From the UHGV virus genome UHGV-1374678: a DNA stretch of 64,000 nucleotides; one strand, written 5' to 3'. Made by a program: the position numbers and the translations under genes. The notes below the pieces were generated by a model. It did no database searches and was not told where the DNA came from. It saw nothing but the letters and a program-made list of their open reading frames with translations. This document shows, one piece after another, positions 11,042 through 34,567 of this stretch. Within the stretch, counting starts at the first letter, position 1, and each line of letters begins with the position of its first letter. Origin of the DNA: a virus.

Positions 11042-11647
11042 ATGTATAGATATATTGCAGATTTACATATTGGCTGCACAAACTCTTTTGAACATCGTAC
11101 TTTAGAGTATGATGAGATTCTTATTAAGAACTGGAACTCTGTAGTTAAGAATAATGATACAACATTCATTCTAGGTGATATTGGTAGATGTGGCAATAAT
11201 AAAGATAATGAATATTTGTGTTCTGTTATTTCAAGACTCAAATCTAAGAAAATTTTAGTGGTCGGAAACCATGATGAAGTTGGTCTAAAAGATTACAGGG
11301 TGAAACAACTATTTGAAACTGTGGTTGATTATTTTGAACTTACTGATAATTACAATGGAATCAGTCAAAAACTTGTGCTTTCGCATTATCCTATCTTTTC
11401 ATGGAATGGTTGTTACAAAGATACAGTTCTTCTCTATGGTCATACACATGGCAACTTCGATGATGTCATCTATCAGGAATCCCTGGAAAAACTCAGATAT
11501 AAGGTAAGACAATTAAATACGGAGAATAAAGAAGTGAAGAAGTTTAAGAATCTTCCTTATGCTTATAATGTTGGTGCAATGATGGATTGGATTAATTATT
11601 GTCCGAGAACGTGGGAAGAGATTAAGGATATTTATATTTTGAGGTAG
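11042..11647 (+). CDS. calcineurin-like metallophosphoesterase
   Basis: All canonical metallophosphatase motifs are present: DLHIG (DxH), LGDIG (GD), VVGNHDE (GNHD/E) and GHTHG (GHxH). Confidence 0.8.
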   Translation: MYRYIADLHIGCTNSFEHRTLEYDEILIKNWNSVVKNNDTTFILGDIGRCGNNKDNEYLCSVISRLKSKKILVVGNHDEVGLKDYRVKQLFETVVDYFELTDNYNGISQKLVLSHYPIFSWNGCYKDTVLLYGHTHGNFDDVIYQESLEKLRYKVRQLNTENKEVKKFKNLPYAYNVGAMMDWINYCPRTWEEIKDIYILR

Positions 11648-11654
11648 GAGAATT

Positions 11655-11879
11655 ATGTTTGAGAGAATTATAAAATCAGAACCATTCAAGAGTGCAGCTA
11701 GAAAAACTGGTAATGTGGTCAAAGTAACATTATTAGTATATTTTGTTCCTATTATTATATCTGTTGCGCTGATTCCGGTGATACACGAATGGTTCTTTAT
11801 CTTAGCGATTGTTATGTTGTTTTCGACTTATCCATTTTCGAGATGGTTAATTAAGTTGCTAGAAGATGGGAGATTGTAA
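11655..11879 (+). CDS. small membrane protein
   Basis: Two hydrophobic TM segments. Confidence 0.4.
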   Translation: MFERIIKSEPFKSAARKTGNVVKVTLLVYFVPIIISVALIPVIHEWFFILAIVMLFSTYPFSRWLIKLLEDGRL

Positions 11880-11885
11880 CGTTCT

Positions 11886-12251
11886 ATGAAAATTGAGAAG
11901 TATCATTTTGCTAAAGGTGAAGCTCTAGTTGTTAATGGAAGTATCCATTTTGATTATAATTTTGCATTTTGTGGAAGACCCTATATTCATTTGAATGCTT
12001 ATTGTGGACGGAAATATCAAATTGGTGTAGGAATTCGTGACAATGATGACTTTGATATTGGTTGTATCTACACAGCAGAAAATGAAGAACAGTTTTTCAA
12101 TGTTCTACATGAGTTGATCAATTGGATGAATGACTTAGAACATGGTGTATGTTTTTGGGAAGAATTTATAGACGATATTAAAGGATTCTTTCCAGAGTTA
12201 GGATGTGAAAAAAGATATCAGTTTGGAGTGAAAAAGAGATGGAAAGGGTAA
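11886..12251 (+). CDS. hypothetical protein
   Basis: ORF track. Confidence 0.4.
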   Translation: MKIEKYHFAKGEALVVNGSIHFDYNFAFCGRPYIHLNAYCGRKYQIGVGIRDNDDFDIGCIYTAENEEQFFNVLHELINWMNDLEHGVCFWEEFIDDIKGFFPELGCEKRYQFGVKKRWKG

Positions 12252-12409
12252 AGAGTAAAAGCAATTCTCCGGGAAACGTTGTTGGTTATGGTGACAAAGT
12301 TCATGATGGCATAGATTTTGATTGGATTAAAAAATTATCAGATAAAATGCAAAAGACAGTTAATGAACTCGCAGAAGCTATCGAATTAGCTAGTAATGGA
12401 GAATAAAAT

Positions 12410-12802
12410 ATGTTAGTTAGTTTTAGCAAAAACATCTTTTTGCAGTTGTATTGCAGAATTGAAAATAAAATCATAAACATAGACGGTAAAAGATGGAGAA
12501 ATGGCAGACATAAATGTAGATGTCATGTATGTGGCAAGGTTTTGGATTCTAAGAAAGACAAGTATAGTCCAAAAGAATGCGGTTGGATGAGATTAAAAGA
12601 CAGGAAAATTTACGATCCGTGGATTTGTCATTCATGTTTGGAACATTACAAACATGGCAAATGGAATGTTTTAGATAATTGTAGTAATGCTGGTGTATAT
12701 TGTTCTGAATGCGGAAAGAAAGTGTACAGGTCTGATTATGCAAATCAGAAAGTAAAATCAAACTTCTGTCCGAATTGTGGAGCAAAAATGGATGTGAATT
12801 GA
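12410..12802 (+). CDS. multi-zinc-ribbon protein
   Basis: Several CxxC pairs (CHVCGK, CHSCLE, CSECGK, CPNCGA). Confidence 0.45.
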   Translation: MLVSFSKNIFLQLYCRIENKIINIDGKRWRNGRHKCRCHVCGKVLDSKKDKYSPKECGWMRLKDRKIYDPWICHSCLEHYKHGKWNVLDNCSNAGVYCSECGKKVYRSDYANQKVKSNFCPNCGAKMDVN

Positions 12803-12871
12803 TTGGAGGAATAACGATGGAGATCAAAGAGACAATTAGTCTTCTTAAGGGCATTCAAAAAAGAGCTGCAA

Positions 12872-14210
12872 GGAATCCCATTAGCTTTAGCTGATAGATA
12901 AAGAGCTGTACAAAACAGCGAATATACAAATGAAAGTGAGGTGATAAGTAAATGTTAAAAGCTTACAAATATAGATTACATCCTAATAAACAACAGGAAA
13001 TTCAAATACAAAAAACTTTCGGATGTTGTAGGTTTGTTTACAATTATATGCTTAATTATAAACAGGAGTTGTATGAAACGAAGAAAGAATTTATGAGTAA
13101 GTTTGATTGTAATAATTATGTGAATCGTGTTCTTAAGAAAGAATATGAATGGTTAAAAAATGTAGACAAATTCGCTCTTACAAATGCAATTTATAATATG
13201 GATTCAGCTTATCAGAAATTTTTCAAAGAACATACTGGTTATCCAAGATTTAAAAGTAAAAAAGATAATAAAAAGTCTTATAAAACAAATAACAATGTAA
13301 ATAAGGGAATAGCAACTATTCGTATTGAAAAGAATAGATTAAGACTTCCTAAAATTGGAATGGTAAGAATTGTTTATTCAAGAGAAATAACAGAAAGGAT
13401 AAAATCTGCAACTATTTCACAAGATCCATCTGGAAAATATTTTGCATCAATATTATTTGAAGCAGAATACGAATATTTACCAAAGAGCAATAATTCAGTC
13501 GGTGTTGATTTAGGAATTAAGGATTTACTTATCACTTCGGATGGTGAGAAAATTAAAAACATTCTTACTACAAAGAAATATGAAAATAAATTAACAAAAG
13601 AGCAAAGAAAACTTGCTAAGAAACAAAGAGGTAGTGTCAACTATGGGAAACAGAGAATAAAAGTAGCTAAAATATATGAAAAAATTCGTAATATCAGACT
13701 ATATAATTTACATCAAATTTCTCACAAACTTATAATCGAAAACCAAGTGATAGTGAGTGAGAATTTAAATATAGAAAGTATGCGACAGAATCATAATCTT
13801 GCAAAATCTGTATCTGGTTGTAGTTGGTACGAATTAACTAGACAGTTATTTTATAAGGCTGAATGGTATGGAAGAGAATATATAAAAATAGATAGATTTT
13901 TTGCAAGTAGTCAGTTATGTAATTGTTGTGGTTATCAAAACAAAGAGGTTAAAGATTTATCTGTTAGAGAATGGATATGTCCGGAATGTGGAACTGTTCA
14001 TGATAGAGATGTAAACGCTGCGATTAATATTCTTAATGAAGGATTGAGATTGCTAGAAGTAGCTTAAATATAAAACATACGGCAATATCTGTCGGAATTT
14101 ACGCCTGTGGAGATAGTAGGTTACGAGGTTTATGAAGCAGGAAGGTTTATAAAAACCAGATAAAAACAATATTTCAAGTGGAGAATAAATAATATGTAGC
14201 ATATATAAAG
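12872..14210 (+). mobile_element. IS200/IS605-family (IS1341-like) insertion element, tnpB only, with an ωRNA expected at the 3' end
   Basis: Left-end block AATCCCATTAGCTTTAGCTGAT ... GAATATACAAATGAAAGTGAGGTGAT lies immediately upstream of tnpB. It is conserved with the second copy at 19701. No tnpA is present. The right boundary is approximate. Confidence 0.6.
12952..14067 (+). CDS. tnpB: TnpB (IS605 OrfB family, RuvC-like, RNA-guided nuclease family)
   Basis: N-terminal [15 protein letters not shown] is the OrfB hallmark. C-terminal zinc finger CNCCG...CPECG. RuvC-III-like [11 protein letters not shown]. Confidence 0.85.
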
Positions 14211-14222
14211 GGAGGTAGTTTT

Positions 14223-15080
14223 ATGGATAGAAGTGATCTCGCAGAAAGAATGAAAGGCTATGAAAAAAGGAATAGATATTATCTTCAGCGAAGGATGCCA
14301 GTAATTTTGAGGCTAGACATGAGAGCTGGACATAGCTTCACAAAAGGATTTGAAAGACCGTTTGATGAAGTTTTTATTAAAGCAATACAAGAAACGGCAA
14401 AATATTTATGCGAAAATGTTCAAAATTGTAAGTTATCTTATCAACAAAGTGACGAAATTACATTATTACTTGTTGATTATGAAAAAATAAATACAGATTG
14501 TTTCTTTGAATATAGAGTAGATAAACTTTGTAGTATTGCAGCAAGTATGGCTACGATGAAATTTAATCAAGTTTTTAAAGAATTATCTTATAGAGAGTCA
14601 GAAAATTTGGAAATTATTTGTAGAAAAAATCCATATTTAGAAAACAGAGATTGTTTAACTAAAATTCCTAATGTACATACCAATTCAGCAGATAAAGGTG
14701 CAATGTTCGATTGCAGATGTTTCAATATTCCAAAGGAAGAAGTAACTAATAGCATTTATTGGCGACAACTTGACGCTACACGAAACTCTATTCAGATGGT
14801 AGGACAAGCTAATTTTTCGCACAAAGAATTGCAGAACAAGTCTTGCAACGATATTCAGGATATGCTTATGACTCAGAAAGGTATTAATTGGAATGATTTG
14901 CCGCTATATCAAAAACGTGGATCTTGTTGTATTAGAAATCATATGATTTCACTACCATATGGCGATTACCTGCTAGATGAAACCGCAGGTGAAAACGAAT
15001 GGATTATTGATAAAGATATTCCAATCTTCAAAGGTGAAGGTAGAAAATATATTGATAATCTTGTTTTCGTAGGAGAATAA
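14223..15080 (+). CDS. Thg1-like protein (tRNA-His guanylyltransferase family 3'-5' nucleotidyltransferase)
   Basis: [24 protein letters not shown] aligns with Thg1 [36 protein letters not shown] aligns with AYGQSDEYSFVF. The catalytic Asp residues (LD.., SDE) are conserved. Confidence 0.75.
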   Translation: [285 protein letters not shown]

Positions 15081-15085
15081 ATGTA

Positions 15086-15493: not shown

Positions 15494-15505
15494 GGGAATA
15501 AACAG

Positions 15506-16381: not shown

Positions 16382-16401
16382 TGAAAATGGATGGATAAAA
16401 A

Positions 16402-17077: not shown

Positions 17078-17584
17078 ATGAAGAAAACAAAAATTATTAG
17101 TGCATTTCCTGCTTGTGGCAAGACATATGCTTTTAAAAAATTAAACGAAAAAGGTTATAAGATTCTCGATAGCGATAGCAGTCAGTTCAGTTGGTGTTAT
17201 GATTATGATCCAACCAATTCAGATAAAATTGAAAAGTATCGTAATCCAGAATTTCCAAGTAATTATATTCAGCACATTAAGGAGAATATTGGAAAAGCTG
17301 ATTATATTTTTGTAAGCAGCCACAAAGAAGTAAGAGATGCTTTAATTGAAAATGGAATCTCTTTTACATTGGTTTATCCTGACAGAAGTATGAAAGCTGA
17401 GTGGATCGGTAGAATTTTCTTGCGTGGAAGCGGAGAAAAATTCTGTCAGCTCATTGCAAATAATTGGGATAGTTGGATTGATGAGATGGAAGAAATTGAG
17501 TGCGACAAATGGATTCTTGGAGATAAAGAATCAATTGACAAATACTATTACATTGGCGAATTGATAGAGAATAAATTGATTTGA
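17078..17584 (+). CDS. P-loop kinase/NTPase
   Basis: Walker A SAFPACGKTY at the N-terminus. A 168-aa size suits a small nucleotide or polynucleotide kinase. The N-terminus resembles the T4 Pnk kinase start (MKKIILTIGCPGSGKST). Confidence 0.45.
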   Translation: MKKTKIISAFPACGKTYAFKKLNEKGYKILDSDSSQFSWCYDYDPTNSDKIEKYRNPEFPSNYIQHIKENIGKADYIFVSSHKEVRDALIENGISFTLVYPDRSMKAEWIGRIFLRGSGEKFCQLIANNWDSWIDEMEEIECDKWILGDKESIDKYYYIGELIENKLI

Positions 17585-17599
17585 TAGGATGTGAAGATT

Positions 17600-18031: not shown

Positions 18032-18033
18032 AT

Positions 18034-19700: not shown

Positions 19701-20995
19701 AAATTCCATTAACTTTAGCTGATGGGATGAATGACAGAGAATAACTGTATATGAGTAATAATTAGAAATCTAAAAAACAGAGAATATACAAATGAAAGGA
19801 AGTGATTGTAGATGTTAGTAGCATATAAATATAGATTATATCCAAACAAAGAACAGCAAGCATACTTTGCGAAGTGTTTTGGATGTGTACGATTCATCTA
19901 CAATCGTATGCTTTCAGATAAGATTGATTATTATAAAGAAACAAAACAGAAATTAAACAATACACCAGCTCAATATAAGAAAGAATTTGAATGGTTAAAA
20001 GAGGTTGACTCTCTTGCATTGGCAAATGCACAGATGAATCTACAGGCAGCTTACAATAATTTTTTCAAAAGACCAGAAGTGGGCTTTCCTAAATTTAAAA
20101 GTAAGAAAAGTCATAAATTTTCTTATACAACTAATAATCAAGGTGGAAATATTTATGTATCTGATAGGTATATAAAACTTCCTAAAATTGGTTTGGTTAG
20201 AGTAAAGAAACATAGAGATTTTGATGGATTAATTAAGTCTGTTACTGTTTCTCAAAACCCTTCTGGTAAATATTATGTCTCTGTTTTGGTTAGCCAAGAA
20301 GACAAAGAAAAACTACCTATTAACAATAACGAAATAGGAATTGATCTTGGTATTAAAGAATTTGCAATTACTTCTGATGGAGAAATGATTGAGAATCCAA
20401 AATATCTTAGAAAGTCTGAAAAGAAATTAAGAAAATTACAAAAGAATTTATCTCGTTGCAAAAAAGGAAGTAAAAACAGAGAAAAATGTAGAATTGAAGT
20501 TGCAAAACAACATGAAAAGATTACAAATCAAAGAAAAGATTTTTTACATAAATTAGCTACGAGAATTATTCGTGAAAATCAAACAATAGTTCTTGAAGAT
20601 TTAAAAGTAAAAAATATGATGAGTAACCATAAATTAGCAAAATCAATTGCAGATGTATCTTGGAGTGAATTTGTAAGGCAATTGGAATATAAAGCTGATT
20701 GGTATGGACGAGAAATTATAAAAATTGATACTTGGTATCCATCTAGCCAGATATGTTCTAATTGTGGTCACAGAGATGGAAAGAAAGCATTGTCTATAAG
20801 AGAATGGACATGTCCTAATTGCGGAACGCATCATGAAAGAGATATTAATGCAGCAATAAATATTCTCAATGAAGGTTTGAGAATGAGAACGGCAGGAACT
20901 GTCGAGATAGCCTAAGTAAACTTATCTCATTAGAGATATTGATTAGGAAGCCCAACGAGCTTTAGCTCGTGGGTAGTTCACAGATAATATTCCAA
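19701..20995 (+). mobile_element. second IS200/IS605-family (IS1341-like) tnpB-only element
   Basis: Left end AAATTCCATTAACTTTAGCTGAT ... GAATATACAAATGAAAGGAAGTGAT is homologous to the copy at 12872. The downstream region contains GAGCTTTAGCTCGTGGG, which echoes the left-end CTTTAGCT motif. The right boundary is approximate. Confidence 0.6.
19812..20915 (+). CDS. tnpB: TnpB (IS605 OrfB family)
   Basis: [17 protein letters not shown]-terminus. CSNCGH...CPNCGT zinc finger. [12 protein letters not shown] RuvC-III motif. About 45-50% identical to the first copy by eye. Confidence 0.85.
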
Positions 20996-24443: not shown

Positions 24444-24459
24444 GGAGAGAATAAACATT

Positions 24460-24654
24460 ATGACAATTAAATTCATCAAAGATGTTATCTTCAAAGACCA
24501 AAAAGAAGACAGTGTAAAGATTAAAAAAGGAAAAATTCTTACAGCAAATGTTATAAGAAACGAAGATGGAAAAGAAGAATATGAGATTACTCATAAGAAA
24601 AATACGTTCATGATTCCATATTCTATGAAAGATGTAATGTTTGAGATTTTGTAA
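24460..24654 (+). CDS. hypothetical protein
   Basis: ORF with GGAGAGAATAAACATTATG junction. Confidence 0.4.
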   Translation: MTIKFIKDVIFKDQKEDSVKIKKGKILTANVIRNEDGKEEYEITHKKNTFMIPYSMKDVMFEIL

Positions 24655-24716
24655 ATTTATTCAGATTCTTTTGGAGAATAAGTAAATGTACAAATAATGA
24701 TTGAGAGGTATAAACA

Positions 24717-25226
24717 ATGCTTAACGAAAAACAAAAGAATCTGGTAGAAGAAAATTATAATCTAATCTACAAATATGCAAAAGACCACAAGTTAGATATA
24801 GAAGAATTCAGTGGATTGCTTTCTATTGGTTTGTGCAAAGCTGCATTAAATTATGATTCAGATAAAACAAAGTTCTCAACATTTGCTTTCAGATGTATGG
24901 GAAATGAAGTGAGTAATTATTTGAGGAAGATTAATGCAGGTAAGTATTTAAGACATGATGAAGTGTATTCTATGGAAGCATTAAGCGAAGATAACGATAG
25001 ACCTATTAGCGAAACTACATTAATGGTTTCTTCAGAGAATATTGAGGGAGAATATATATTTAAGACTAAGTTTCAAAAAGAATATGACAAGCTGAAAGAT
25101 CAAGTAAAAAATATTATTGCTCTCAAATATCGTGGTTACACAAACAATGAAGTTGCGGAGATTCTGGACATGAAAGCGTCCACTGTAAGTATGGCGTTAA
25201 AGAAATTCAAAATGGCTTTGGTATAG
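24717..25226 (+). CDS. sigma-70 family RNA polymerase sigma factor (phage-encoded)
   Basis: Region-2-like N-terminus (NYNLIYKYAK...) and region-4 HTH (YRGYTNNEVAEILDMKASTVSMALKKF). Confidence 0.7.
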   Translation: MLNEKQKNLVEENYNLIYKYAKDHKLDIEEFSGLLSIGLCKAALNYDSDKTKFSTFAFRCMGNEVSNYLRKINAGKYLRHDEVYSMEALSEDNDRPISETTLMVSSENIEGEYIFKTKFQKEYDKLKDQVKNIIALKYRGYTNNEVAEILDMKASTVSMALKKFKMALV

Positions 25227-25252
25227 TGGAAGTATAGAAGTGGTGGTGACAA

Positions 25253-25657
25253 ATGAACAATCGACAAAGAAAGAAATGGCTGAAGAAACAGAATTCATAT
25301 GTAAATCCAAAGGAAACATGGTGCTTAGATGTTAATTTAGCCAAATATATCATTCCAAGATTGAAAAAATTCAAGAAGCTTAACAATGGTTATCCTGGCA
25401 GAGAAGAAATGGATACACCAGAAAAATGGGATGATGCATTAGATAAGATGATTCAAGCGTTTGAATACGTAATAGATTTTGATGAATATTGGTTAGATGA
25501 TCCAAGATATGACTATACGGATATTATGTTTGGCGATAACAAAGAACTTTACGAAAGTATAGTAGAGAATAAAAGAATGGAAGATATTCGCAGGCTCGAA
25601 GCAATTAATGATGGGTTACAGTTATTTGCTAAGTATTATATGAGTTTGTGGTGGTAA
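25253..25657 (+). CDS. hypothetical protein (MNNRQRKK N-terminus)
   Basis: ORF track. Paralogous N-terminus with 16097. Confidence 0.4.
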   Translation: MNNRQRKKWLKKQNSYVNPKETWCLDVNLAKYIIPRLKKFKKLNNGYPGREEMDTPEKWDDALDKMIQAFEYVIDFDEYWLDDPRYDYTDIMFGDNKELYESIVENKRMEDIRRLEAINDGLQLFAKYYMSLWW

Positions 25658-25745
25658 GAGAATAAATGGCGAGTTTCGTTGGAGAATGTTTCTTAGGAGG
25701 TAATGAAAATGTGCAAAAAAAAGTAACAAATCAAGATATAAGGGG

Positions 25746-26354
25746 TTGAGATTTAATTACAAGATAGATGGAAAAGTATTAATGGATAAATATCAAACGA
25801 TTGATGATTTTCTATCAACAGAATTTCCCAAGAACAATAATCCATTGTCTCCAATAGACGAAACAATATTGTTCAATATTAAGTGGAATAATAATCCAAT
25901 ATTATCGTGTTCTGGTGAACATAAATTAAGTGAAATAAAAAATATTTTAAAGAATTTTGATCCAAACCAACTGGAAAGAAAAGAGATTTATTCAATTGAA
26001 GAAGTTGAAGAAAAAGTAAAAGATGTGTTGTTTGAGAAAAAACGTAATTTGTCTAAAGTGGATTTTGATGGAGATATGATTAAGGGCAACAGTCAGAGGT
26101 ATCAGACATTCTTTACCAAAGGTTGTAGATGTGTAAAGTGTGGAATCGAAGGCAAGTATTTTGTAAAAGAGAAACATTTAAAAGATATAAGTTTCCATCT
26201 TAATCTATATGCCATTGATGAAAACGAAAAAGAAATCTTGATGACAAAAGACCATATTATCCCAAAATCAAAGGGTGGAACTAACGATATTAGCAATTAT
26301 CAGACAATGTGTAAAAAATGCAATGAAGCAAAAGAAAATAGATTAGAAGATTAA
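25746..26354 (+). CDS. HNH endonuclease
   Basis: CRCVKCG ... TKDHIIPKSKGGTNDISNYQTMCKKCN matches the HNH motif with its zinc ligands. The start may be ATG 25782 instead of TTG 25746. Confidence 0.8.
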   Translation: MRFNYKIDGKVLMDKYQTIDDFLSTEFPKNNNPLSPIDETILFNIKWNNNPILSCSGEHKLSEIKNILKNFDPNQLERKEIYSIEEVEEKVKDVLFEKKRNLSKVDFDGDMIKGNSQRYQTFFTKGCRCVKCGIEGKYFVKEKHLKDISFHLNLYAIDENEKEILMTKDHIIPKSKGGTNDISNYQTMCKKCNEAKENRLED

Positions 26355-26421
26355 AGAAAGGAAAAATAGAAAAGTTCCTATAGGATAAAACGTGCGTTAC
26401 TTACTACGGTAAGAGGAACTT

Positions 26422-27729
26422 ATGTATTGTGCTTATGTTACAACATTAAAAGGATTAAGAAAACATAGTAATGCAGATAGATTACAGTGTGTTGAAGTTT
26501 TTGGACAAAATGTAATTGTTGATTTGAGCTATAAAGATGGACAAAAGGTAGTTTTCTTTCCATCTGACGGACAATTATCAGAAGAGTATGCAAAAGATAA
26601 TAATCTCGTAAGAATGAAAGATGAAAATGGTAATAATATTGGCGGATATATGGACGCTGAAAAAAGAAATGTTACTGCGATTAGACTCAGAGGTGAAAAA
26701 TCAGAGGGTTTAGTATTGCCTATAGAATCACTTTCTAAGTATGTGGATGTTACAAAATTAAAAGATGGAGATCAGATTACCGTCATTGGTGGTCATGAAA
26801 TCTGTAGAAAATATATTCCAAAAAGTAGTAGAAGAAGCAACAACTCAAGAAAAAGTAGTGATAAGAAGAAAAAAGATAACTCGATTTCTTATCCATTCTT
26901 CGAAGAACACAAAGATACTGCACAGCTTGCGTATAATATGTCTGCGTTTAAACCCGGTGATACTGTATATATTACCCGTAAGCTTCACGGCACGTCAGCT
27001 CGTACCATGAAGACAATTAAAGTAACAAAGAAGAATAATGTATTTAGAAGATTTTTACATATGAAACCTAAATACGAAAAAGAAGTTTCTGTAGTTACAG
27101 GAAGTAGACGAGTTGTATTAAAAGATATGAATAGTACAGATGGTTATTATTCAGATAATACATTCAGAAAGAAATATCACGATTTGTTAAAAGACAAACT
27201 TCCGGAAGGATTTGAAATTTTCTATGAGATTGTTGGTTATGTAAACGAGACAACACCAATCATGGGAACTGTGTCAAACAGCAAAGTAAAAGATAAAGAA
27301 TTCAAGAAGAAATTTGGAGATACAACTGTATTTTCTTATGGCTGCAAACCAGGTGAAAACGAAATGTATGTGTATAGAATGACTGCAACAACAGCAGATG
27401 GTACAGTTGTGGAAATTCCTTGGGAGAATATAAAAGTATGGTGTGACAAACTTGGTGTAAAACATGTACCAGAATTGGAAAAATTTATCTATACAACGCC
27501 TGAAGACTTAAAAGAAAGAGTAAATAAGTATCTTGATGGTATGCCAGTTGATGAGATTGGTAAAACACATATTGCAGAAGGTGTAGTTGTTCGTATTGAC
27601 AATAGAGATTCATTTACTGCATATAAAGATAAAGTGTTCGAATTCAAGGTATGTGAAGGAATTATTAAAGACAATTCAGACGCACCAGACATGGAAGAAG
27701 CAGAAGAATTGCTTAAGGAGATTGTATAA
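26422..27729 (+). CDS. RNA ligase (Rnl2-like nucleotidyltransferase) with N-terminal tRNA-binding OB-fold (Myf/Trbp111-type) domain
   Basis: N-terminus KHSNADRLQCVEVFG...GQKVVFFPSDGQL...RGEKSEGLV matches the tRNA-binding consensus (HPDADKLYVCKVDVG...GQKVVVALPGAVL...RGVESEGML). Ligase motif I TRKLHGTSA (KxHGxN). Motif III-like FEIFYEIVGY. Motif IV AEGVVVR. Confidence 0.75.
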   Translation: MYCAYVTTLKGLRKHSNADRLQCVEVFGQNVIVDLSYKDGQKVVFFPSDGQLSEEYAKDNNLVRMKDENGNNIGGYMDAEKRNVTAIRLRGEKSEGLVLPIESLSKYVDVTKLKDGDQITVIGGHEICRKYIPKSSRRSNNSRKSSDKKKKDNSISYPFFEEHKDTAQLAYNMSAFKPGDTVYITRKLHGTSARTMKTIKVTKKNNVFRRFLHMKPKYEKEVSVVTGSRRVVLKDMNSTDGYYSDNTFRKKYHDLLKDKLPEGFEIFYEIVGYVNETTPIMGTVSNSKVKDKEFKKKFGDTTVFSYGCKPGENEMYVYRMTATTADGTVVEIPWENIKVWCDKLGVKHVPELEKFIYTTPEDLKERVNKYLDGMPVDEIGKTHIAEGVVVRIDNRDSFTAYKDKVFEFKVCEGIIKDNSDAPDMEEAEELLKEIV

Positions 27730-28619
27730 TGAATAAGCCAACATTATGGGTTATGGTCGGTTTGTCTGGAAGTGGTAAATCAAGTGTAGCAAAAGAAATC
27801 GCAGAGAATAATTCTAACACAATTATCGTATCATTAGACAATATTTGTGAAGAATTGACTGGTAAAGTAGAAGATCAATCTAAAAATGAAGAAGTATCTA
27901 AAGTATTTCACAAAAGAATTCGTGAGACATTGGAGAATAATACTAATGTAGTTGCTGATGCGACAAATATTACAATGAGGTCGAGACGAGCAATTATTGA
28001 AAATGTCAAAAGTATTGAATGTCATAAAATCGTTTATCTGATTCCAAAACCATTTAGACAATGCAAAATTGATAACCTGAATAGACAACATCCTGTGCCT
28101 GAAGAAGTATTAAATGGGCAGCTTAGAAAATTCCAGATTCCGTTCATGGAAGATGGTTTTGATGAAGGAATTATTTATTACATACATAATAAAAATAGAT
28201 TGGATGCGTTAAAAATGTTTGATAATATGGAAGGTTTTAATCAACAAAATCCGCATCATACTTCAACACTTGCAGACCATTGCAAGAATGCGCATGAATT
28301 GTTTTCAAGACATGGTTATCCGTCAAAATATAATTTGGCAGCGTTATTTCATGATTATGGGAAATTGTACTGTAAAGAATTAGATGATGATGGAATTGCA
28401 CGTTTTTACGGACATGATTCAATTGGTTCATATATGATTTTAGAAAATTTTGCAGAAATATTTTATAAAGATGTTGCCGATATGTGTTTTTTAATTAACT
28501 ATCACATGATGCCTTTTGATTGGACAACAGAAAAATCTAAGGAACGTTGGAAGAAAAGGTTTGGAGAATATAAATATCAGATGCTTTTGGATTTTCATGA
28601 ATGCGATAAAGCGAGGTGA
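27729..28619 (+). CDS. polynucleotide 5'-kinase (T4 Pnk-like) fused to HD-domain phosphohydrolase (Cca-type 2',3'-cyclic phosphodiesterase/phosphatase-like)
   Basis: Walker A GLSGSGKSS. VVADATNITMRSRRAI aligns with T4 Pnk VIISDTNLNPERRLAW. C-terminal HxxH...HDYGK...GHD has the HD-superfamily signature, like the HDIGK of the bacterial CCA-enzyme HD domain. Confidence 0.75.
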   Translation: MNKPTLWVMVGLSGSGKSSVAKEIAENNSNTIIVSLDNICEELTGKVEDQSKNEEVSKVFHKRIRETLENNTNVVADATNITMRSRRAIIENVKSIECHKIVYLIPKPFRQCKIDNLNRQHPVPEEVLNGQLRKFQIPFMEDGFDEGIIYYIHNKNRLDALKMFDNMEGFNQQNPHHTSTLADHCKNAHELFSRHGYPSKYNLAALFHDYGKLYCKELDDDGIARFYGHDSIGSYMILENFAEIFYKDVADMCFLINYHMMPFDWTTEKSKERWKKRFGEYKYQMLLDFHECDKAR

Positions 28620-28625
28620 GACAAA

Positions 28626-28973
28626 ATGAGATGCAATACAGATTTAGAAACTTGGCTGCATGATTTCGAAGATGATATATTTCGTATCTTAATTTACAGA
28701 AAACCTGGTCAATATACTCCATACGAGATAGAGAATAAGTTTAGTGATGAATCATTGTATGTAGATAATGAGTACAAAAAAGTATTTATTGAAGATGTAA
28801 TAGAACTACCTGACAAAGATGTTCTGATTGGATTCAGAGAAGTTCTTGATGTGAATCAAAACGAAGATGGAGAATATGAATGCGAACTTGCAGATAGCAT
28901 TGAATATTATAAGTTATCAGAAATCAAACTGGAATGTTTCAAGTGTGATCAAGTGACAGGAGGTGAGTTTTAA
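28626..28973 (+). CDS. hypothetical acidic protein
   Basis: ORF track. Confidence 0.4.
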   Translation: MRCNTDLETWLHDFEDDIFRILIYRKPGQYTPYEIENKFSDESLYVDNEYKKVFIEDVIELPDKDVLIGFREVLDVNQNEDGEYECELADSIEYYKLSEIKLECFKCDQVTGGEF

Positions 28974-28975
28974 TA

Positions 28976-29397
28976 TGGTATCAAGTCAAATTATTGATGT
29001 GATTAACGAATTATGTAGTAAGTTCGGAATTGCAATCGATTGGTCACAGAAAAACGTGCAGCCTTATTTGGAAAGTCTTGTGATAAAAGCTGTAAATTAT
29101 GAATTATATACGTCTATTATGTGGATTGTAATCGGAGCAATTCTATTCGGAATAGGTTTATTTTATTTATCAAAAGCCAACGAGTGTAAAAAGAGATATA
29201 TAAAATATAAAAGAGATTCTATGGTTGACACTGAAAGTGATTATATATGTAAAGATTTATACAGAATATTAGGTTGGTCTTTATTTATAGCTGCTATCCT
29301 TCTTATTATATACAATACAAATGATGTTATTAAATGTATTATATTTCCAGATAAAGTTGTGTTTGATATGATTTATAGTTATTTACCAACTAATTAA
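28976..29397 (+). CDS. membrane protein
   Basis: ATG at 28976 after GGAGGTGAGTTTTAATATG. Two TM segments. Confidence 0.45.
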
Positions 29398-29404
29398 ATG
29401 GAGG

Positions 29405-29671
29405 ATGAACATGGAAGTATTTCAAAATATTATGATTATTTTCTTGACTGCACTACTACTAGGAATTTTAATTGCATTTTCAATTCTATTAGAGAAGTTC
29501 ATGAAGTTATCAGATGAAGTACATAAGAAACTCTTTGAAATGTCAGTAGAGAATAATACAAATGCGGATGACGGATTCATTCTTGGAGATGAGTTCTTGA
29601 CAGAAGACGAATTGACAAATAAAAGCGATGAAGATTCAAGAGAAGAATTCGGAATTTATTCTGAACGATAA
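29405..29671 (+). CDS. small membrane protein with acidic tail
   Basis: TM segment followed by an acidic C-terminus. GGAGGATGAACATG RBS. Confidence 0.45.
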   Translation: MNMEVFQNIMIIFLTALLLGILIAFSILLEKFMKLSDEVHKKLFEMSVENNTNADDGFILGDEFLTEDELTNKSDEDSREEFGIYSER

Positions 29672-29837
29672 AAGAGTAATAGTATTATGGTTATACGTCA
29701 GATATGAGGACAAATTCTTGCCGTAATCGTTCAAGATTAACAATTGGATATTGAAAAATAAAGAACTGAATTTGCTCTTTATACATATCAAATAGTAAGC
29801 AATATATGATGTATTTTTAGATTGGTGGTGAGATTTT

Positions 29838-29981
29838 ATGTGGGTGATTTTCTTATTAAGTGCAATCGCATTTGGGCTGGTTGCAATGCTATTCACTTGG
29901 TTAGGGAATAAAATTTTTCTTAGTATGAAGAAGGATGAAGAAAAAACAAAAAGAGAATTAGAAAAGGAGAATAACAAATAG
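29838..29981 (+). CDS. small membrane peptide (47 aa)
   Basis: ATG at 29838 (MWVIFLLSAIAFGLVAML...) precedes the SPFH gene. Ends in the GGAGAATAA junction. Not in the ORF track because it is short. Confidence 0.35.
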   Translation: MWVIFLLSAIAFGLVAMLFTWLGNKIFLSMKKDEEKTKRELEKENNK

Positions 29982-30841
29982 TGAAAAAAGGATTATTTAT
30001 TGGAATCATTGCAGTCGTAGCTGTAGTTGGAGGAATTTTTACAATCAAATCTTGTAAATTGATTGATACAGGAAAGGTTGGAATTGTTTATAGCTACAAA
30101 GGTGGAGTAGAAGATAAGGTATTACAGCCAGGATTAAACTTCATTTCACCAATTAAGAAAGTAAAACAGTTCTCAACAAGCAATGAGATTCTGGTTTTAT
30201 CAAAAGACAAGCGTGATGGAAGTGAGGATGACGATTCATTCAAAGTTGCAACGTCAGATGATGCAAGTATTGCATTGAGTTTTCAGATGTCTTACAGATA
30301 TGATCCAGATACAGTCATTGACACATACAAGAAATTCCGTGGAATGGACGGAGATGATATTGTAGAAAGTCGTGTAAAAACAGTTCTCAAATCAAAGATT
30401 TCTGAAGTCACAACAAATTATTCTATGATGGATATCTATTCCGGTAACAGATCAGCAATCAACAAAGAAATTACGGATGCTCTGAATACAGAATTCCATG
30501 AAAAATATGGTATCGAAGTTCTTGATGCTTCTATTATTGATGTTCATCCAGACAAAAAACTGAAAGAATCTATTGATAATCGTGTAAAAGCACTTCAGGA
30601 AAAGCAACAGGCAGAAGCAGAACAGCAGAAAATTCAGGTTCAGAAAGAGACTGAAAAGATGCAAGCTGAAGCAGATGCACAGATTGAGATTACGAAAGCA
30701 AAGGCTGAAGCTGAGTCGAACAAAATTGTCAGTGAATCAATCACTGATGAGCTTATCAGAATGAAAGAGGCAGAAGCAAGAAACAAATTCGGATGGGTTA
30801 CTGTTCAGGGAGCAGACACGGTTGTAACAGGCAATAAGTAA
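29981..30841 (+). CDS. SPFH/band-7 (stomatin/prohibitin-like) membrane protein
   Basis: N-terminal TM anchor, then an SPFH-like core and a C-terminal coiled coil (QQAEAEQQKIQVQKETEKMQAEA...). GTG start after GGAGAATAACAAATA. Confidence 0.7.
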   Translation: MKKGLFIGIIAVVAVVGGIFTIKSCKLIDTGKVGIVYSYKGGVEDKVLQPGLNFISPIKKVKQFSTSNEILVLSKDKRDGSEDDDSFKVATSDDASIALSFQMSYRYDPDTVIDTYKKFRGMDGDDIVESRVKTVLKSKISEVTTNYSMMDIYSGNRSAINKEITDALNTEFHEKYGIEVLDASIIDVHPDKKLKESIDNRVKALQEKQQAEAEQQKIQVQKETEKMQAEADAQIEITKAKAEAESNKIVSESITDELIRMKEAEARNKFGWVTVQGADTVVTGNK

Positions 30842-30874
30842 TCCATACATATAAAATAATATACATTTAACTTT

Positions 30875-30907
30875 GCGTAGTGTCACAGCTACGCAGAGTA
30901 TTTTAAA
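30875..30907 (+). terminator. rho-independent terminator
   Basis: GCGTAG-tgtcacag-CTACGC hairpin followed by AGAGTATTTT. Confidence 0.6.
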
Positions 30908-30914
30908 AATATGA

Positions 30915-31148
30915 TTGGAGAATATGTACATGGGAAAGAGGTTTAGATGGATTGATGCAATTAGAACAATGAGTATTGAGGAACTTGCGTCATATCTCAT
31001 AAAAGAGGACTTTACATTCAAGGACGGAATTTATTGGAAATCCCCAAGTGGAGAAAAATTTGATTATTACGATCTTGCTTTAGAAGATTGTATTAAATGG
31101 TTGAATTCTAAATATGACGGGAAGGAGAAATTTAATGGGATGGTATGA
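30915..31148 (+). CDS. hypothetical protein
   Basis: ORF track. Confidence 0.4.
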   Translation: MENMYMGKRFRWIDAIRTMSIEELASYLIKEDFTFKDGIYWKSPSGEKFDYYDLALEDCIKWLNSKYDGKEKFNGMV

Positions 31149-31506
31149 GGAATACATGTCGAATACATATATAACAAATCTTGAGTCAGTTATAAAAGGT
31201 ATTAAAGAAAAAGATAAGCTAATTGATTTTTTACAAGAAGAGAATAAAAAATTGGAAAACGAACATTACAAAGACAATAAACTGAAAAAATTACAATATA
31301 AGATTGACCAGTTACAGGGTGATTGTAATAGAGGATTTCCGATTAGTTATAACGAGCAAGAAGTAATTGATGAACTTCGTGAAAAACATAAAAAGGTATG
31401 TCCTCGTTGCAGTTTTAAGTATGTGTTCGAACAATTTTCTATTGTGGAATTTGGGTATTTAAAATGCAATGTTTGCGGTGAAGAAATAAAATTTGCAGAA
31501 CGGTGA
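31137..31506 (+). CDS. coiled-coil zinc-ribbon protein
   Basis: ATG at 31137 with C-terminal CPRCS...CNVCGE. Confidence 0.4.
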
Positions 31507-31520
31507 TGGAGAATAATTAG

Positions 31521-31781
31521 ATGAAGGAACTATTGTTAGAGTATATGGATAGCATTAATGCTGAAGGAATAGACTTTGTTAGTCTTGGTTTTCCGCTTGA
31601 TGGTATTGTTTATAAGTCATACACAAGAGACGACTTTGAAAAGAATGGAATAATCCTTAAAACAAACAGAGTCATATGGAGAATAATCAATGGTGAGAAA
31701 CATTATTATTGTGGCGAGAATGATTCGGGACATGTGACGTGGAAAGATTTAGAAGGTTATAGAAAGGAATTTGCGAAATGA
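31521..31781 (+). CDS. hypothetical protein
   Basis: ORF track. Confidence 0.4.
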   Translation: MKELLLEYMDSINAEGIDFVSLGFPLDGIVYKSYTRDDFEKNGIILKTNRVIWRIINGEKHYYCGENDSGHVTWKDLEGYRKEFAK

Positions 31782-32212
31782 GATTTTCTGAAGCAATCGA
31801 ACATCTTCTTAACGGAGAATATATAAGAAGATCAGAATGGCGTAAAGATTTTTATATCAAACTTGAAGACGATGCAATTGTAGATTGTGATGGATCAGCA
31901 GAAGTGTTCTATAGCAAAGACATTTTTGCTAATGATTGGGAGATATATCAGCCTAAATTAGATGTAGGTACAGTTATTCAACATCATGACGGTACAATCG
32001 GAATTGTGCTTGATTCATGCAAATCAGATAAGGAATACACTGTTTTGAATGAGAATGGATGTGTAGAAACGCTAAATGAAACTCAGATTTCATTAATCAA
32101 TATTGACGATGGAAGAGTTAGTTTACATGTAGATTCTGCAAGTAAAAAGCTCAAAAGTTTAGTTTTATCATTACAGATGATTTCAGAGTTAGTAAATGAA
32201 GATATTTGGTAA
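31778..32212 (+). CDS. DUF2829-like phage protein
   Basis: N-terminus MRFSEAIEHLLNGEYIRRSEWRKDFYI resembles the family of 36911 ([28 protein letters not shown]). Confidence 0.4.
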   Translation: MRFSEAIEHLLNGEYIRRSEWRKDFYIKLEDDAIVDCDGSAEVFYSKDIFANDWEIYQPKLDVGTVIQHHDGTIGIVLDSCKSDKEYTVLNENGCVETLNETQISLINIDDGRVSLHVDSASKKLKSLVLSLQMISELVNEDIW

Positions 32213-32342
32213 CAGAGAATAAACAAGTAAGAGATGTCCACGATGCAAATGACATTAAACTTATTGCACAGTGCTAACAAAAGAATAGAGATGATAGTTG
32301 GTAGTGTCTACCATCTCCACTGAATTTCTTTTCCAACAACCG

Positions 32343-32441
32343 TTATTGCATTCGATTATCTAGTAACCGAAGACGAGATACCAGCTCGTACTTCTTAATA
32401 CGGTTAAGCACTTTAAGCGGTTTCAGTTCCGCTTGGTACAT
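32343..32441 (-). CDS. possible 32-aa peptide on the minus strand
   Basis: Minus-strand ATG preceded by TAAGGAC, coding MYQAELKPLKVLNRIKKYELVSRLRLLDNRMQ. Only a weak call. Confidence 0.15.
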   Translation of the reverse strand: MYQAELKPLKVLNRIKKYELVSRLRLLDNRMQ

Positions 32442-32622
32442 GTCCTTAGCTGCTTTGCTTCCATTGGGCTGGACGAATTCAAAACTGCTTTCAAAGCAAA
32501 TTCCTCCTTAGTCCATATAGGGACAGGAAGTATTATAACAGAACAAAGGACATGTATCAATAACTGATAGAGAATATATAAGTATAAAGTTTAAAGATTC
32601 AAAGATTAAAGGAGAAAAGATT

Positions 32623-33267
32623 ATGAGTACAATTGAGAAAATGACAGTTCACAAAGCACTGGCAGAGTTAAAGATTATTGATTCTAGAATAGAGAGATCA
32701 ATTGATGATGCACAGTTCTGTGTGGCAAACAAACATTCTAATGAAAAAATTAATGGTATTCCGGTTGAAGATGCTAAAAGGTTAATGGTTGGAAGTTATG
32801 ACAAAGCATCTGATCTTATTAAAAGAAGAAACGCAATCAAGAGAGCAGTTGTTCTTTCTAACGCTAAGACAATTGTTGCGATTGCAGACAGAGAATATAC
32901 AGTTGCAGAAGCTATTGAGATGAAAAATCATGGCATTGACTTTGAGGAACTTCTTTTAAATGAAATGAGATGTCAATACGCAGACGCTAATAGAACTATC
33001 TCAGCAGAAAATGGCGAAAAACTGAGCGAAAGAGCAGATAAATTTGTCATTGACATGTATGGATCAAAAGAGGGCAAAACAAATACTGCTGATTTTGAGA
33101 AAGCTAAGAAAGATTTTATCACAGCAAATTCTTATGACTTAGTTGATCCGCTTGGTATCAAGAAGAAGATTGATAAGCTAGAAGAATATATCTCAAATTT
33201 CAAGACAGAAGTAGATGCTGCATTGAGTGTTAGCAATGCTATTACAGAAATTACTGTAGAGTATTAG
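32623..33267 (+). CDS. hypothetical protein
   Basis: 214-aa ORF with RBS AAAGGAGAAAAGATTATG, after a 400-bp non-coding gap. Confidence 0.55.
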   Translation: MSTIEKMTVHKALAELKIIDSRIERSIDDAQFCVANKHSNEKINGIPVEDAKRLMVGSYDKASDLIKRRNAIKRAVVLSNAKTIVAIADREYTVAEAIEMKNHGIDFEELLLNEMRCQYADANRTISAENGEKLSERADKFVIDMYGSKEGKTNTADFEKAKKDFITANSYDLVDPLGIKKKIDKLEEYISNFKTEVDAALSVSNAITEITVEY

Positions 33268-33908
33268 AGAATATATAAATAGGAAATTATTTCACTGTTT
33301 GCTGAAAACTTAAAACTACAATCATTCAGACTTTTGCAAGTATAGCCTGAATAAAAACAATAAAGAAACTTGCAATATCCTAAAACATAAAAGGTAAGTA
33401 GAATATTAAGTAGAATATACAGATGAATGTTTAATGCACATTGTTAAACAGATAGCTGTAAAGAGTAAAGTTCAAATGTCAAGTAGTAAAACTCAAAATT
33501 CAAAGATTATGTTTTGTGTAAAGTTTAAATAGTAAATAGTAAAGATATAAAGTTTTATGAAATCTTCGATAACAGTTTTCAGTATGATTGTACTTGACTA
33601 TAAGTTGTCTGCGAAGCTGGTAAATGGTGAATTAATTATAAATGTCAACCTGCATAATAATATGCATAGTTATCGTGTGGGTTGACAAATAAGCACCCAA
33701 GGTGATGCGGTACGTTGCACCTGGCTTATATCCAGCGATTCTCCGTTCGACTCGGAGTGGGTGTACTGTATCTGAATATTCACAGAATGTGTTATTAATT
33801 TCCTTTCTTTCTATGAACATTCTAGTTCAGATACAATGTTTTTCATAACTTCCTTTTTGTTGGGTTGGCAACTTACCCTAGAGACAAAAAAGTTGCAAAT
33901 AAAAATAT

Positions 33909-34050
33909 GGTGGATGACAGCAACGGAACGAAATTTGTTGTGCATGACAAATTCTAGTATGAGTAGGAACGCTGTGGTTGTAAGTGAAGTTGTTAAGAAG
34001 ATGCACATTCGAGGCAATGAATCTTATAAAGGTGGTTCGAATCCACCATC
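33909..34050 (+). ncRNA. tRNA-like element / orphan tRNA 3' half
   Basis: Perfect T-arm GGTGG-TTCGAAT-CCACC at 34031-34047, followed by ATCCATC. That 7-mer can pair with GGTGGAT at 33909 to give a 7-bp acceptor-like helix with one G:U. The intervening 110 nt does not fold as a canonical tRNA. Confidence 0.3.
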
Positions 34051-34445
34051 CATCTTTTAATTTCAAAACCTGTCGTTCAGCCTGTATGGTGAGCAAATTA
34101 TAAAATTGGAACACAAGCCTTAAATGAACGTAAAACAAAAGGAATCGAAGTACAAGATTCTGGAGTAGACCTAGACACAGTACCGTTATAAGATAGCTCA
34201 TAAACTGAAAAGATATATGTTTTTGAGTGAAAAAAGTAAGTAAAGAATGAAATACTGAAAATTCTTATGAAACAGAAATAGAAATCGCTCAAATTGCCAC
34301 GATGTTATGAAAGGTCATTGTGGAAATTCAATGGGCTGTGGTGAATAAGTAAACACATAGAGCTTTGACCTCTACATTAATGGGAGCGTTACCCATCAGC
34401 CTAGCTTGTGAGATTTTGGAACATCTCACAAATAAAATTCTTTCA

Positions 34446-34481
34446 TGGTATAAGTTTTTAAAGATGTGCAGAAATGCACAT
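34446..34481 (+). promoter_or_regulatory. possible extended -10 promoter and hairpin upstream of tRNA-Leu
   Basis: TGGTATAAG (TGnTATAAG-like extended -10), then the inverted repeat TGTGCA-GAAA-TGCACA directly 5' of the tRNA. Confidence 0.3.
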
Positions 34482-34484
34482 CGA

Positions 34485-34567
34485 GCTGGCATGGCGGAAT
34501 GGTAGACGCAATGGACTTAAAATCCATCGGTGGAAACACCATACGAGTTCAAGTCTCGTTGCCAGTA
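34485..34567 (+). tRNA. tRNA-Leu (anticodon UAA)
   Basis: Hand fold: acceptor GCTGGCA/TGCCAGT, D-arm GCG..CGC, anticodon stem ATGGA/TCCAT with loop CTTAAAA (anticodon TAA), long variable arm GGTG-GAAA-CACC, T-arm ACGAG-TTCAAGT-CTCGT, discriminator A. No CCA encoded. Confidence 0.85.

Follow-up and report, generated by a model that had tools for sequence, protein, structure and literature searches.

Does the accessory region of virus genome UHGV-1374678 encode a single system for reversing damage to tRNA, or several RNA-end enzymes that are inherited separately? The initial annotation of the window, by which we mean the whole 64,000-nucleotide stretch analyzed here, took the former view and grouped a Thg1-like enzyme, an RNA ligase, a polynucleotide kinase (Pnk) fused to an HD domain, a calcineurin-type phosphoesterase, a second P-loop kinase, and phage tRNAs into one complete counter-defense module. 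The analysis described here finds a real RNA-repair operon and a real Thg1-like protein (TLP), which had been over-read as a single novel system. In the operon, a gene for an Rnl5-like ligase is translationally coupled to one for a Pnk-HD enzyme, and judging from sequence the pair probably repairs RNA, likely tRNA, after attack by host ribonucleases (RNases). The operon and the cassette that overlaps it comprise the following features:

25746-26354 (+): HNH endonuclease gene immediately preceding the ligase gene, matching PHROG HNH families down to 1e-19
26422-27729 (+): ATP-dependent RNA ligase, Rnl5-like (Pfam, PHROG, NCBIfam, PDB, and alignments)
27729-28619 (+): predicted bifunctional Pnk-HD end-healing enzyme, with an N-terminal kinase and a C-terminal HD phosphoesterase
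25226-27721 (+): variable cassette of a 134-amino-acid (aa) open reading frame (ORF), HNH gene, and ligase gene, delimited by blastn of the window against related contigs L003 and L004

The ligase call of the initial annotation was borne out by Pfam RNA_ligase (PF09414; 43.6 bits against a cut-off of 27, residues 181-395) and by phrog_968 'RNA ligase' (3e-68), and the protein shares 52-54% identity with the product annotated as 'RNA ligase' in Tsamsa-like Bacillus phages. Its 435 aa are laid out as an N-terminal OB domain (~6-125), a basic linker, a nucleotidyltransferase domain (181-395), and then ~40 acidic residues. The lysine nucleophile, K187, lies within motif I (RKLHGTS), and K187, E269, E386-G-V-V-V-R391, and K402/K404 show no variation across A1 and A3, the ligase alignments containing 11-25 homologs; because these residues are common to all ATP-dependent ligases, they are not specific to Rnl5.

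The Rnl5 family is defined by an OB module placed N-terminal to the nucleotidyltransferase, the reverse of the order in DNA ligases, and by having no family-specific C-terminal domain (PMC7261155); phage members have been reported within it (PMC5397189, PMC7261155). The ligase here has the same architecture, with an N-terminal OB domain followed by a nucleotidyltransferase and no distinct C-terminal domain. The N-terminal domain scored 23.6 bits against the PHA02142/Rnl5 OB fold (PF21189), below the cut-off of 27, with the OB match covering residues 6-101, and residues 12-193 matched TIGR02306 (DraRnl) with an E value of 5e-15. The sole PDB relatives are Naegleria Rnl5 structures, NgrRnl matching at E 0.016 over the N-terminal domain only. 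The initial annotation had instead described this domain as a Myf/Trbp111-type tRNA-binding domain; that identity (Myf/Trbp111/CsaA) was rejected, as tRNA_bind (PF01588) reached 13.9 bits against a cut-off of 27 over only 22 residues (the RLRGEKSEGLVLPI region) and the Rnl5 OB fold matches better. On these profile matches, the domain is the predicted OB module of Rnl5-type nick-sealing ligases, which in NgrRnl mainly promotes lysine adenylylation of the ligase (PMC7261155). Compared with Rnl5, the phage protein has ~95 additional residues, including a basic linker and insertions in the nucleotidyltransferase, and its motif I reads KLHG, as in T4 Rnl2, whereas Rnl5 has KxDG. Because its scores fall under the curated cut-offs, it is named 'Rnl5-like' and not an equivalog.

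The Pnk-type kinase-HD fusion proposed for the next gene also held up, with residues 6-138 matching the AAA_33 kinase family at 74.5 bits and the C-terminal half, scanned alone, matching HD at 22.2 bits against a cut-off of 22. The kinase half carries the P-loop (GLSGSGKS), D37, D77, and R86/R87, that is, the P-loop, catalytic Asp, Walker-B-like Asp, and Arg lid of Pnk-clade kinases; its fold is nearest to Pnk enzymes, and among solved structures the kinase of Clostridium thermocellum Pnkp is the closest (E 2e-9). The HD domain spans residues ~170-296 with an all-helical HD fold, and the H...HD...H...H...D ligands of the HD superfamily are present as H177, H208-D209, H229, H259, and D293, invariant or nearly so in 27 homologs. 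This half shares 28-31% identity with the HD region found in the CCA-adding enzyme of related phages. No HAD (DxDxT) 3′-phosphatase was matched in the protein by Pfam or NCBIfam, the C-terminal domain being HD. The kinase-then-HD architecture is found in 534 representatives of 50%-identity clusters at E<=1e-30, and among the 150 best matches listed nearly all are full length, at ~290-330 residues. To our knowledge, no kinase-then-HD member and no phage Rnl5-like ligase has been biochemically characterized.

The 'healing and sealing' unit suggested by the initial annotation is visible in the gene layout, where the ligase stop and the Pnk-HD start overlap as TAATG (27727-27731); no terminator-like site was found in 24.4-30.1 kb. 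The HNH gene probably starts at 25710, matching the 214-aa gene called in relatives. Among related loci, which carry L numbers here, the HNH gene adjoins the ligase upstream in L009-16 and L021-23 at 57-99% identity. The order HNH-ligase-PnkHD is identical to the window in gut contigs L013-16; it recurs in L009-12 (ligase 81%, PnkHD 54.5%, and HNH 57% identical), where the flanks are quite different and encode TerD, a cation ATPase, and PARP, and again in L021-23 (ligase 83%, PnkHD 58%). The Tsamsa-like siphophages (Tsamsa, PBC2, Kirov, Thrax1-5, and vB_BcoS-136) have the pair alone, with both families in the same order and adjacent and annotated as 'RNA ligase' and 'polynucleotide kinase'; there the ligase is 52-54% identical and the kinase-HD 24-27% identical over its full length, and DnaE is also related. 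They differ from the phages here, which are represented by human-gut anaerobe contigs and always have HNH upstream. In mycobacteriophage Lumos the ligase belongs to the same family, and a polynucleotide kinase is encoded separately, 2.8 kb upstream of it. A megablast search of GenBank phages with the operon returned no match, the relatives there being recognizable at the protein level only. The recurrence of the ligase-PnkHD pair where PnkHD is only 24-58% identical argues that its adjacency exceeds chance. More than 7,700 ligase homologs were scored in human-gut metagenomes, with single ligase sequences on 30-80 contigs. We know of no biochemical characterization of the pair, either in Tsamsa-like phages or in the gut-phage group.

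By analogy, the closest layout is that of the ligase/HD-Pnk cluster of Runella slithyformis. There the ligase ORF overlaps the downstream HD-Pnk ORF (PMC6097658), and the two systems are alike in having an HD 2′,3′-phosphoesterase and a P-loop 5′-OH kinase directly downstream of an overlapping ATP-dependent ligase ORF. The Runella enzyme is HD then kinase, whereas the phage enzyme is kinase (6-138) then HD; because the domain order is reversed, the phage Pnk-HD is a functional analog and not of Runella architecture. The phage also has no Tpt1 or MTase-HIT cassette of the kind described there, and the likeness is one of gene layout and healing domains. T4 Pnkp and Rnl1, which act against PrrC, are alike in being a phage-encoded route that heals and then seals 2′,3′-cyclic-phosphate/5′-OH ends, but they use a HAD phosphatase and Rnl1 where the phage here has HD and an Rnl5-like ligase, a difference in build that the initial annotation had recognized in part, calling the phosphatase HD rather than HAD and the ligase an Rnl with a tRNA-binding domain. 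C. thermocellum Pnkp joins kinase, metallophosphoesterase, and ligase in one polypeptide, whereas the genes here are separate, and in comparison with CthPnkp/Hen1 the ligase here is not Rnl4 and there is no Hen1.

From family knowledge, we infer the enzyme activities, the RNA substrate, and the counter-defense role, which together would give the following pathway. A cut by a metal-independent ribonuclease would leave 2′,3′-cyclic-phosphate or 3′-phosphate ends together with 5′-OH ends. The HD domain would open or remove the 2′,3′-cyclic or 3′-phosphate, the P-loop kinase would phosphorylate the 5′-OH, and the ligase, adenylylated on K187, would seal the resulting 3′-OH/5′-PO4 break. Because the ligase is Rnl5-like, the break would most likely sit within a duplex or a stem such as those of tRNA, and the likeliest purpose would be restoring host or phage tRNA, or another structured RNA, cut by host RNase defenses or toxins.

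Several points weigh against this pathway. The ligase scored 55.3 bits against the curated Rnl5 model TIGR02306, under its cut-off of 151, and an AlphaFold2 model built from an alignment of 25 sequences (80-100% identical) had a pLDDT of 36. The physiological role of Rnl5 nick-sealing ligases has been published as 'uncharted' (PMC5397189), and T4-style anticodon-loop repair uses Rnl1, a different family from Rnl5. That the substrate is one cut by an anticodon nuclease is itself something we infer, as is the host. Nor is the ligase universal among relatives: the nearest, L003-5, have PnkHD at 99% identity yet no HNH and ligase cassette, and in L006-8 PnkHD is present with no ligase within 10 kb.

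The only known genetic phenotype of an Rnl5 ligase is in DNA repair after irradiation in Deinococcus (PMC5397189), a further point of this kind and one that bears on a different reading, in which the ligase-PnkHD pair serves phage DNA metabolism by acting on nicks with 3′-OH-side ribonucleotides or on damaged ends, for example in RNA-primed replication intermediates or after host nuclease damage. The operon lies ~9 kb upstream of a replication module that includes a helicase, DnaE, a RecJ-like DHH protein, and an NAD-dependent DNA ligase. For this reading it also counts that Munir and Shuman reportedly found in 2017 that Runella HD-Pnk heals DNA ends as well as RNA ends. In Deinococcus, DraRnl needs RNA only on the 3′-OH side of the nick, and the knockout delays post-irradiation genome reassembly (PMC5397189). 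The phage, however, already encodes a DNA ligase of its own:

52801-54768: NAD-dependent DNA ligase, in the replication module

Moreover, the kinase is nearest to RNA-repair and tRNA kinases (CthPnkp, PSTK, and KTI12), the HD domain is of the tRNA-nucleotidyltransferase type, and close relatives do without the cassette, something unusual for a gene set that serves replication. A role in DNA metabolism is unlikely, and repair of RNA remains the preferred reading of the operon.

In blastn against L003 and L004, the flanks of the cassette aligned at 90.5% (24443-25225) and 97.7% (27722-33640), and the cassette itself was unmatched. In its place, positions 9046-9993 of L003/L004 (948 bp) encode unrelated ORFs of 122 and 184 aa, of which the 184-aa ORF is start/stop-coupled to PnkHD just as the ligase is; neither ORF matched Pfam or PHROG. 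Since the cassette is absent from L003-5 and PnkHD occurs without a ligase in L006-8, the ligase is dispensable or replaceable, and the same absences identify Pnk-HD as the conserved anchor and the ligase as a swappable cassette.

Other RNA-end genes are found upstream of PnkHD in these relatives. L003 encodes an RlaP nucleotidyltransferase, a CCA-adding enzyme with HD, and a DHH/DHHA1 phosphoesterase at 788-5045, with a 320-aa ORF without assigned function between the RlaP and CCA-enzyme genes; none of this cluster is in the window. L007 encodes RlaP and a CCA-adding enzyme with HD at 1-2678, then a 307-aa ORF at the position that DHH occupies in L003. In both contigs the RlaP/CCA cluster is 6-9 kb upstream of PnkHD and the ORF after the CCA enzyme has 306-307 aa. 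The presence of RlaP, CCA, and DHH genes near PnkHD in relatives marks the accessory region as a recurrent home for RNA-end enzymes, carried as independent cassettes. One could go further and propose that the Rnl5-like ligase, Pnk-HD, and the 3′-5′ polymerase form a pathway for breaks in tRNA stems or 5′ ends, unlike the anticodon-loop breaks of the T4 model, with interchangeable cassettes matched to different host RNase defenses; examples might be acceptor-stem cuts or excision lesions filled in before sealing, and the HNH-ligase cassette, the 184-aa ORF, and RlaP/CCA/DHH might then be alternative sealing or end-restoring modules. This proposal is a long shot.

The remaining protein-coding members of the proposed module lie upstream of the operon:

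11042-11647 (+): small calcineurin-type metallophosphoesterase, phrog_547 (Pfam, PHROG, and motifs)
14223-15080 (+): Thg1-like protein, bacterial TLP type, predicted 3′-5′ RNA polymerase (Pfam, PHROG, and PDB)
17078-17584 (+): small P-loop protein, phrog_4182 'unknown function', with a Walker-A-like AFPACGKT

The Thg1-like identity given at 14223 is secure, at 95.9 bits against Pfam Thg1 (PF04446; cut-off 29.2) and 1e-83 against phrog_4717. The best structural match is the Bacillus thuringiensis TLP (BtTLP; PDB 4kgk, E 1e-60), eukaryotic Thg1 giving 1e-4 to 9e-8, and D32 and D77-E78 are conserved and align to BtTLP. The phage protein shares with BtTLP the catalytic carboxylates and, as its sequence matches indicate, membership of the bacterial TLP clade (PMC3061083, PMC3701042); it differs in a 39-aa insertion (121-159) and in being phage-encoded. 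Bacterial TLPs repair 5′-truncated tRNA in vitro (PMC3061083), and the phage enzyme would rebuild 5′-truncated tRNA acceptor stems by templated 3′-5′ addition, on damaged tRNAs or on odd tRNAs of the phage's own.

Linkage among Thg1, PNK, and ligase genes in bacteria was reported in 2010 (PMC2904730). In the window, Thg1 lies 11 kb upstream of the ligase operon, past two TnpB elements and two methylase genes; it occurs with the ligase in the window and L013/14 and without it in L004. Thg1 stands alone in Fusobacterium phage Fnu1, Staphylococcus phage PMBT8, and Bacillus phages Bcp1 and FADO, in which annotation and tblastn found no ligase or PNK within 5 kb of it, and in FADO ~110 kb separate Thg1 and PnkHD. 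Among GenBank phages, Thg1 is present in 161 records, most of which are large Bacillus myoviruses or jumbo phages. Mycobacteriophages make up 296 of the 379 records with the ligase family, and PnkHD is in 53 records; at genus level the overlap among the three is small. We read the gene for the Thg1-like polymerase as an accessory gene in its own right, inherited independently.

The phosphoesterase called at 11042 is a genuine member of its family (30.5 bits against Metallophos PF00149, cut-off 21.5; phrog_547 3e-31), with complete metal motifs (D7-x-H9, G45-D46, G75-N-H-D78, H115, and G133-H-x-H136) and uncharacterized Aquifex aq_1665 as its nearest structure. In the window it is 15 kb from the operon, and in L024-29 it is not adjacent to PnkHD. 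A phrog_547 homolog (34% identity, E 8e-28) starts 5 nt past the PnkHD stop in L021-23, and this is the one related lineage in which the gene is next to the operon, against three others in which it is not; the closer homologs (56-64%) lie beside ORFs without assigned function or beside NrdD/NrdG/dUTPase. A search for systematic linkage of phosphoesterase and RNA repair thus gave adjacency in one lineage only and three other contexts that are unrelated. The connection is no more than suggestive, a hint that the enzyme may have an auxiliary role; it may act as a 3′-end phosphoesterase, which has weak support.

The 'second P-loop kinase' at 17078 is supported as a P-loop protein only. The ORF has no match in Pfam, NCBIfam, PDB, or PADLOC, only its P-loop aligns with the Pnk-HD profile (hhalign probability 19%), and with a Walker A and no family by five approaches, the kinase identity was set aside as unsupported. 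It is present in L016 and absent from L013, L014, and L004, and in L006/L007 a homolog is located elsewhere, adjoining a radical-SAM gene. The ORF is outside the repair unit and variably present among near-identical relatives. Among the domain families that the initial annotation had named, profile searches thus returned Thg1, RNA ligase, HD, and Metallophos but not tRNA_bind, and at the level of domains four of its six protein or RNA calls are correct.

With these distributions in hand, the claim that all six elements form one co-functioning, previously undescribed counter-defense system against tRNA-cleaving immunity can be weighed. In its favor, all elements share a strand and fall inside a 23-kb part of an accessory region where methylase genes and a Tad2-like gene are also found. 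In L021-23 the phrog_547 phosphoesterase directly follows ligase-PnkHD, and in relatives RlaP, CCA-adding enzyme, and DHH phosphoesterase genes lie 6-9 kb upstream of PnkHD. For both Thg1 and the ligase family, 15 of the matches come from Lak megaphage records. Yet Thg1 lacks a ligase or PNK within 5 kb in the four phages named above, genus counts of Thg1, ligase family, and PnkHD overlap little, L004 carries Thg1 and PnkHD with no ligase, the P-loop ORF has no family and comes and goes, and the closer phosphoesterase homologs keep company with nucleotide-metabolism genes (NrdD/NrdG/dUTPase) or with ORFs without assigned function. By genus counts and examined loci, no recurrence of the 23-kb set was found and a single co-inherited toolkit is not supported; only ligase-PnkHD, with or without HNH, recurs, while each of Thg1, the phosphoesterase, and the P-loop ORF varies on its own. 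Nor is the concept new. The jumbo-phage survey of Iyer et al. 2021 (section 3.4.9) describes phage RNA-repair toolkits with ligases, PNK, and HAD, calcineurin, or HD phosphatases, and also lists Thg1, CCA enzymes, RlaP, and tRNAs, countering host attack on tRNA (PMC7824862). That survey covers phages larger than ~200 kb (PMC7824862), and the relatives here are ~160-205 kb. All the genes here are known kinds of phage genes and the set does not behave as one linked system; a single undescribed system is very improbable.

tRNA genes were called with ARAGORN (four calls) and Rfam RF00005, and were judged on a 7-nt anticodon loop and the gathering score:

33693-33766 (+): tRNA-Ile(UAU), non-canonical (ARAGORN alone; under the Rfam tRNA threshold)
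34332-34405 (+): tRNA-Gln(UUG), with non-canonical D arm and T loop (ARAGORN alone)
34485-34567 (+): tRNA-Leu(UAA), class II, canonical (ARAGORN; Rfam 59.9 bits)
34727-34797 (+): tRNA-like gene (42 bits against the Rfam tRNA model), its anticodon stem of 3 bp closing a loop of 6 nt, AUUGCA

The tRNA noted at 34485 is thus canonical, with a fold z-score of -3.05, and is kept in relatives. The one noted at 34727 fits the Rfam tRNA model and falls short in its anticodon arm; ARAGORN repeats the call in L005 and L013-15, and the gene may be a degenerate tRNA-Ala(UGC) or have a different role. The tRNA-Ile(UAU) and tRNA-Gln(UUG) calls fail the Rfam tRNA model even at E<=1, and the position of tRNA-Ile(UAU) holds a Met(CAU) allele in some relatives. 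Both calls lie in a segment (33641-34455, +) that is variable among relatives. A possible tRNA-like element at 33909-34057 has an acceptor stem, a TTCGAAT T-arm, and a ~75-nt insert, with a fold z-score of just -1.45, and was called by neither ARAGORN nor Rfam. In L005, L014, and L015, the tRNA cluster has TnpB genes inserted around it.

The tRNA genes would supplement A-ending codons and may replace cleaved tRNAs, and they fit codon supplementation at least as well as replacement. This raises the possibility that Thg1 and the tRNA genes are housekeeping for phage translation and not counter-defense, with the TLP maturing or proofreading the 5′ ends of unusual phage tRNAs, as in mitochondrial tRNA 5′-editing, and the tRNAs supplying A-ending codons, which an AT-rich genome favors. 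In 28 window ORFs, UUA (36% of Leu codons) and GCA (59% of Ala codons) are each the commonest codon, and several of the phage tRNAs are non-canonical. Many Thg1 phages are large, including myoviruses of ~150-165 kb and jumbo phages of 260-550 kb (G, XacN1, Lak, and CcrColossus), and several large Thg1-bearing phages are tRNA-rich. TLPs are also able to perform templated 5′-end repair or editing (PMC3061083, PMC6471195). Against this, the share of AUA among Ile codons is only 13% and that of CAA among Gln codons 43%, and the ligase/PnkHD operon is left unexplained. Housekeeping is a possible, though doubtful, account of these genes; it is compatible with RNA repair by the operon and does not exclude it.

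The wider setting is that of a large phage. The window has 32% guanine plus cytosine (GC) and a strong GC skew, with nearly all ORFs on the + strand, and is the accessory and replication region of a large low-GC phage, probably one of anaerobic gut Firmicutes. Human-gut metagenomes often hold near-identical contigs of 50-206 kb, and the phage relatives assemble to ~160-205 kb. The nearest matches of DnaE are human-fecal phage contigs, followed by Clostridioides/Clostridium phages phiCD211 and c-st and the Tsamsa-like Bacillus phages. A homolog of the phosphoesterase is annotated in Eubacterium ramulus and in one Lachnospiraceae metagenome-assembled genome, which suggests a Lachnospiraceae-type host.

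The part of the window at 37-64 kb is a replication and nucleotide-metabolism module that encodes AAA_24, a DnaB-like helicase, the RecJ-like DHH protein, DnaE, ERCC4, FolD, ThyX, the NAD-dependent DNA ligase, guanylate kinase, NrdD with NrdG, and dUTPase. The anaerobic ribonucleotide reductase gene NrdD (57172-60531, +) is split by an intein with a LAGLIDADG homing endonuclease; another intein lies within a C5 DNA methylase in relative L015 (5215-7725).

The accessory region at 11-35 kb consists mainly of small ORFs without assigned function and also carries two TnpB genes, two C5 cytosine methylases, a sigma factor, the HNH endonuclease, an SPFH protein, and a Tad2-like gene. Around Thg1, it holds genes of predicted counter-defense type, namely the two C5 methylases and the Tad2-like gene. 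The adjoining C5 cytosine DNA methyltransferases (22405-23334 and 23466-24443, +) vary in relatives, which have one, two, an intein-containing one, or N6/N4 methylases instead. The Tad2-like (Thoeris anti-defense 2) domain protein is at 31778-32212 (+; Pfam 1.7e-8), and a second small Tad2-like ORF at 36911-37156 (+) comes from the Pfam table of relative L013. PADLOC run on the window returned only trivial HNH and P-loop matches, and a defense-system reading of the region was rejected.

The two TnpB genes (IS605 OrfB / Cas12f-like; 12952-14067 and 19812-20915, +) are 51% identical to each other and lack TnpA. Copies occupy other sites in relatives, with three inside 21 kb of L015, and these differing sites suggest active TnpB spread in the phage lineage. 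Between the Tad2-like gene and the tRNA cluster are two orphan structured-RNA motifs with Rfam gathering-score matches, RAGATH-27 (33291-33374, +; 85 bits) and FuFi-1 (32285-32457, -; 66.7 bits), as well as a 214-aa ORF (32623-33267, +) that matches phrog_1491 'tail fiber protein' (3e-56) in this early/accessory region, distant from any structural module in the window. A ClpP-like protease gene is located at 3802-4362 (+), 22 kb upstream of the ligase, and a ClpP-like gene adjoins or is near the Rnl5-like ligase in Lumos and Tsamsa-like phages (L030 4769-5419; L001 8930-9520); this proximity in several phages may be coincidence.

For phage biology, the finding extends a known theme and adds one phage group to the candidates for RNA-repair counter-defense, and it shows repair genes behaving as cassettes that are exchanged within an accessory region. 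Human-gut metagenomes hold the ligase/Pnk-HD pair in great abundance. Since the healing partner is clear and variants with and without the ligase exist in nature, such a phage operon would be a handy system for assigning a substrate to the Rnl5 ligases.

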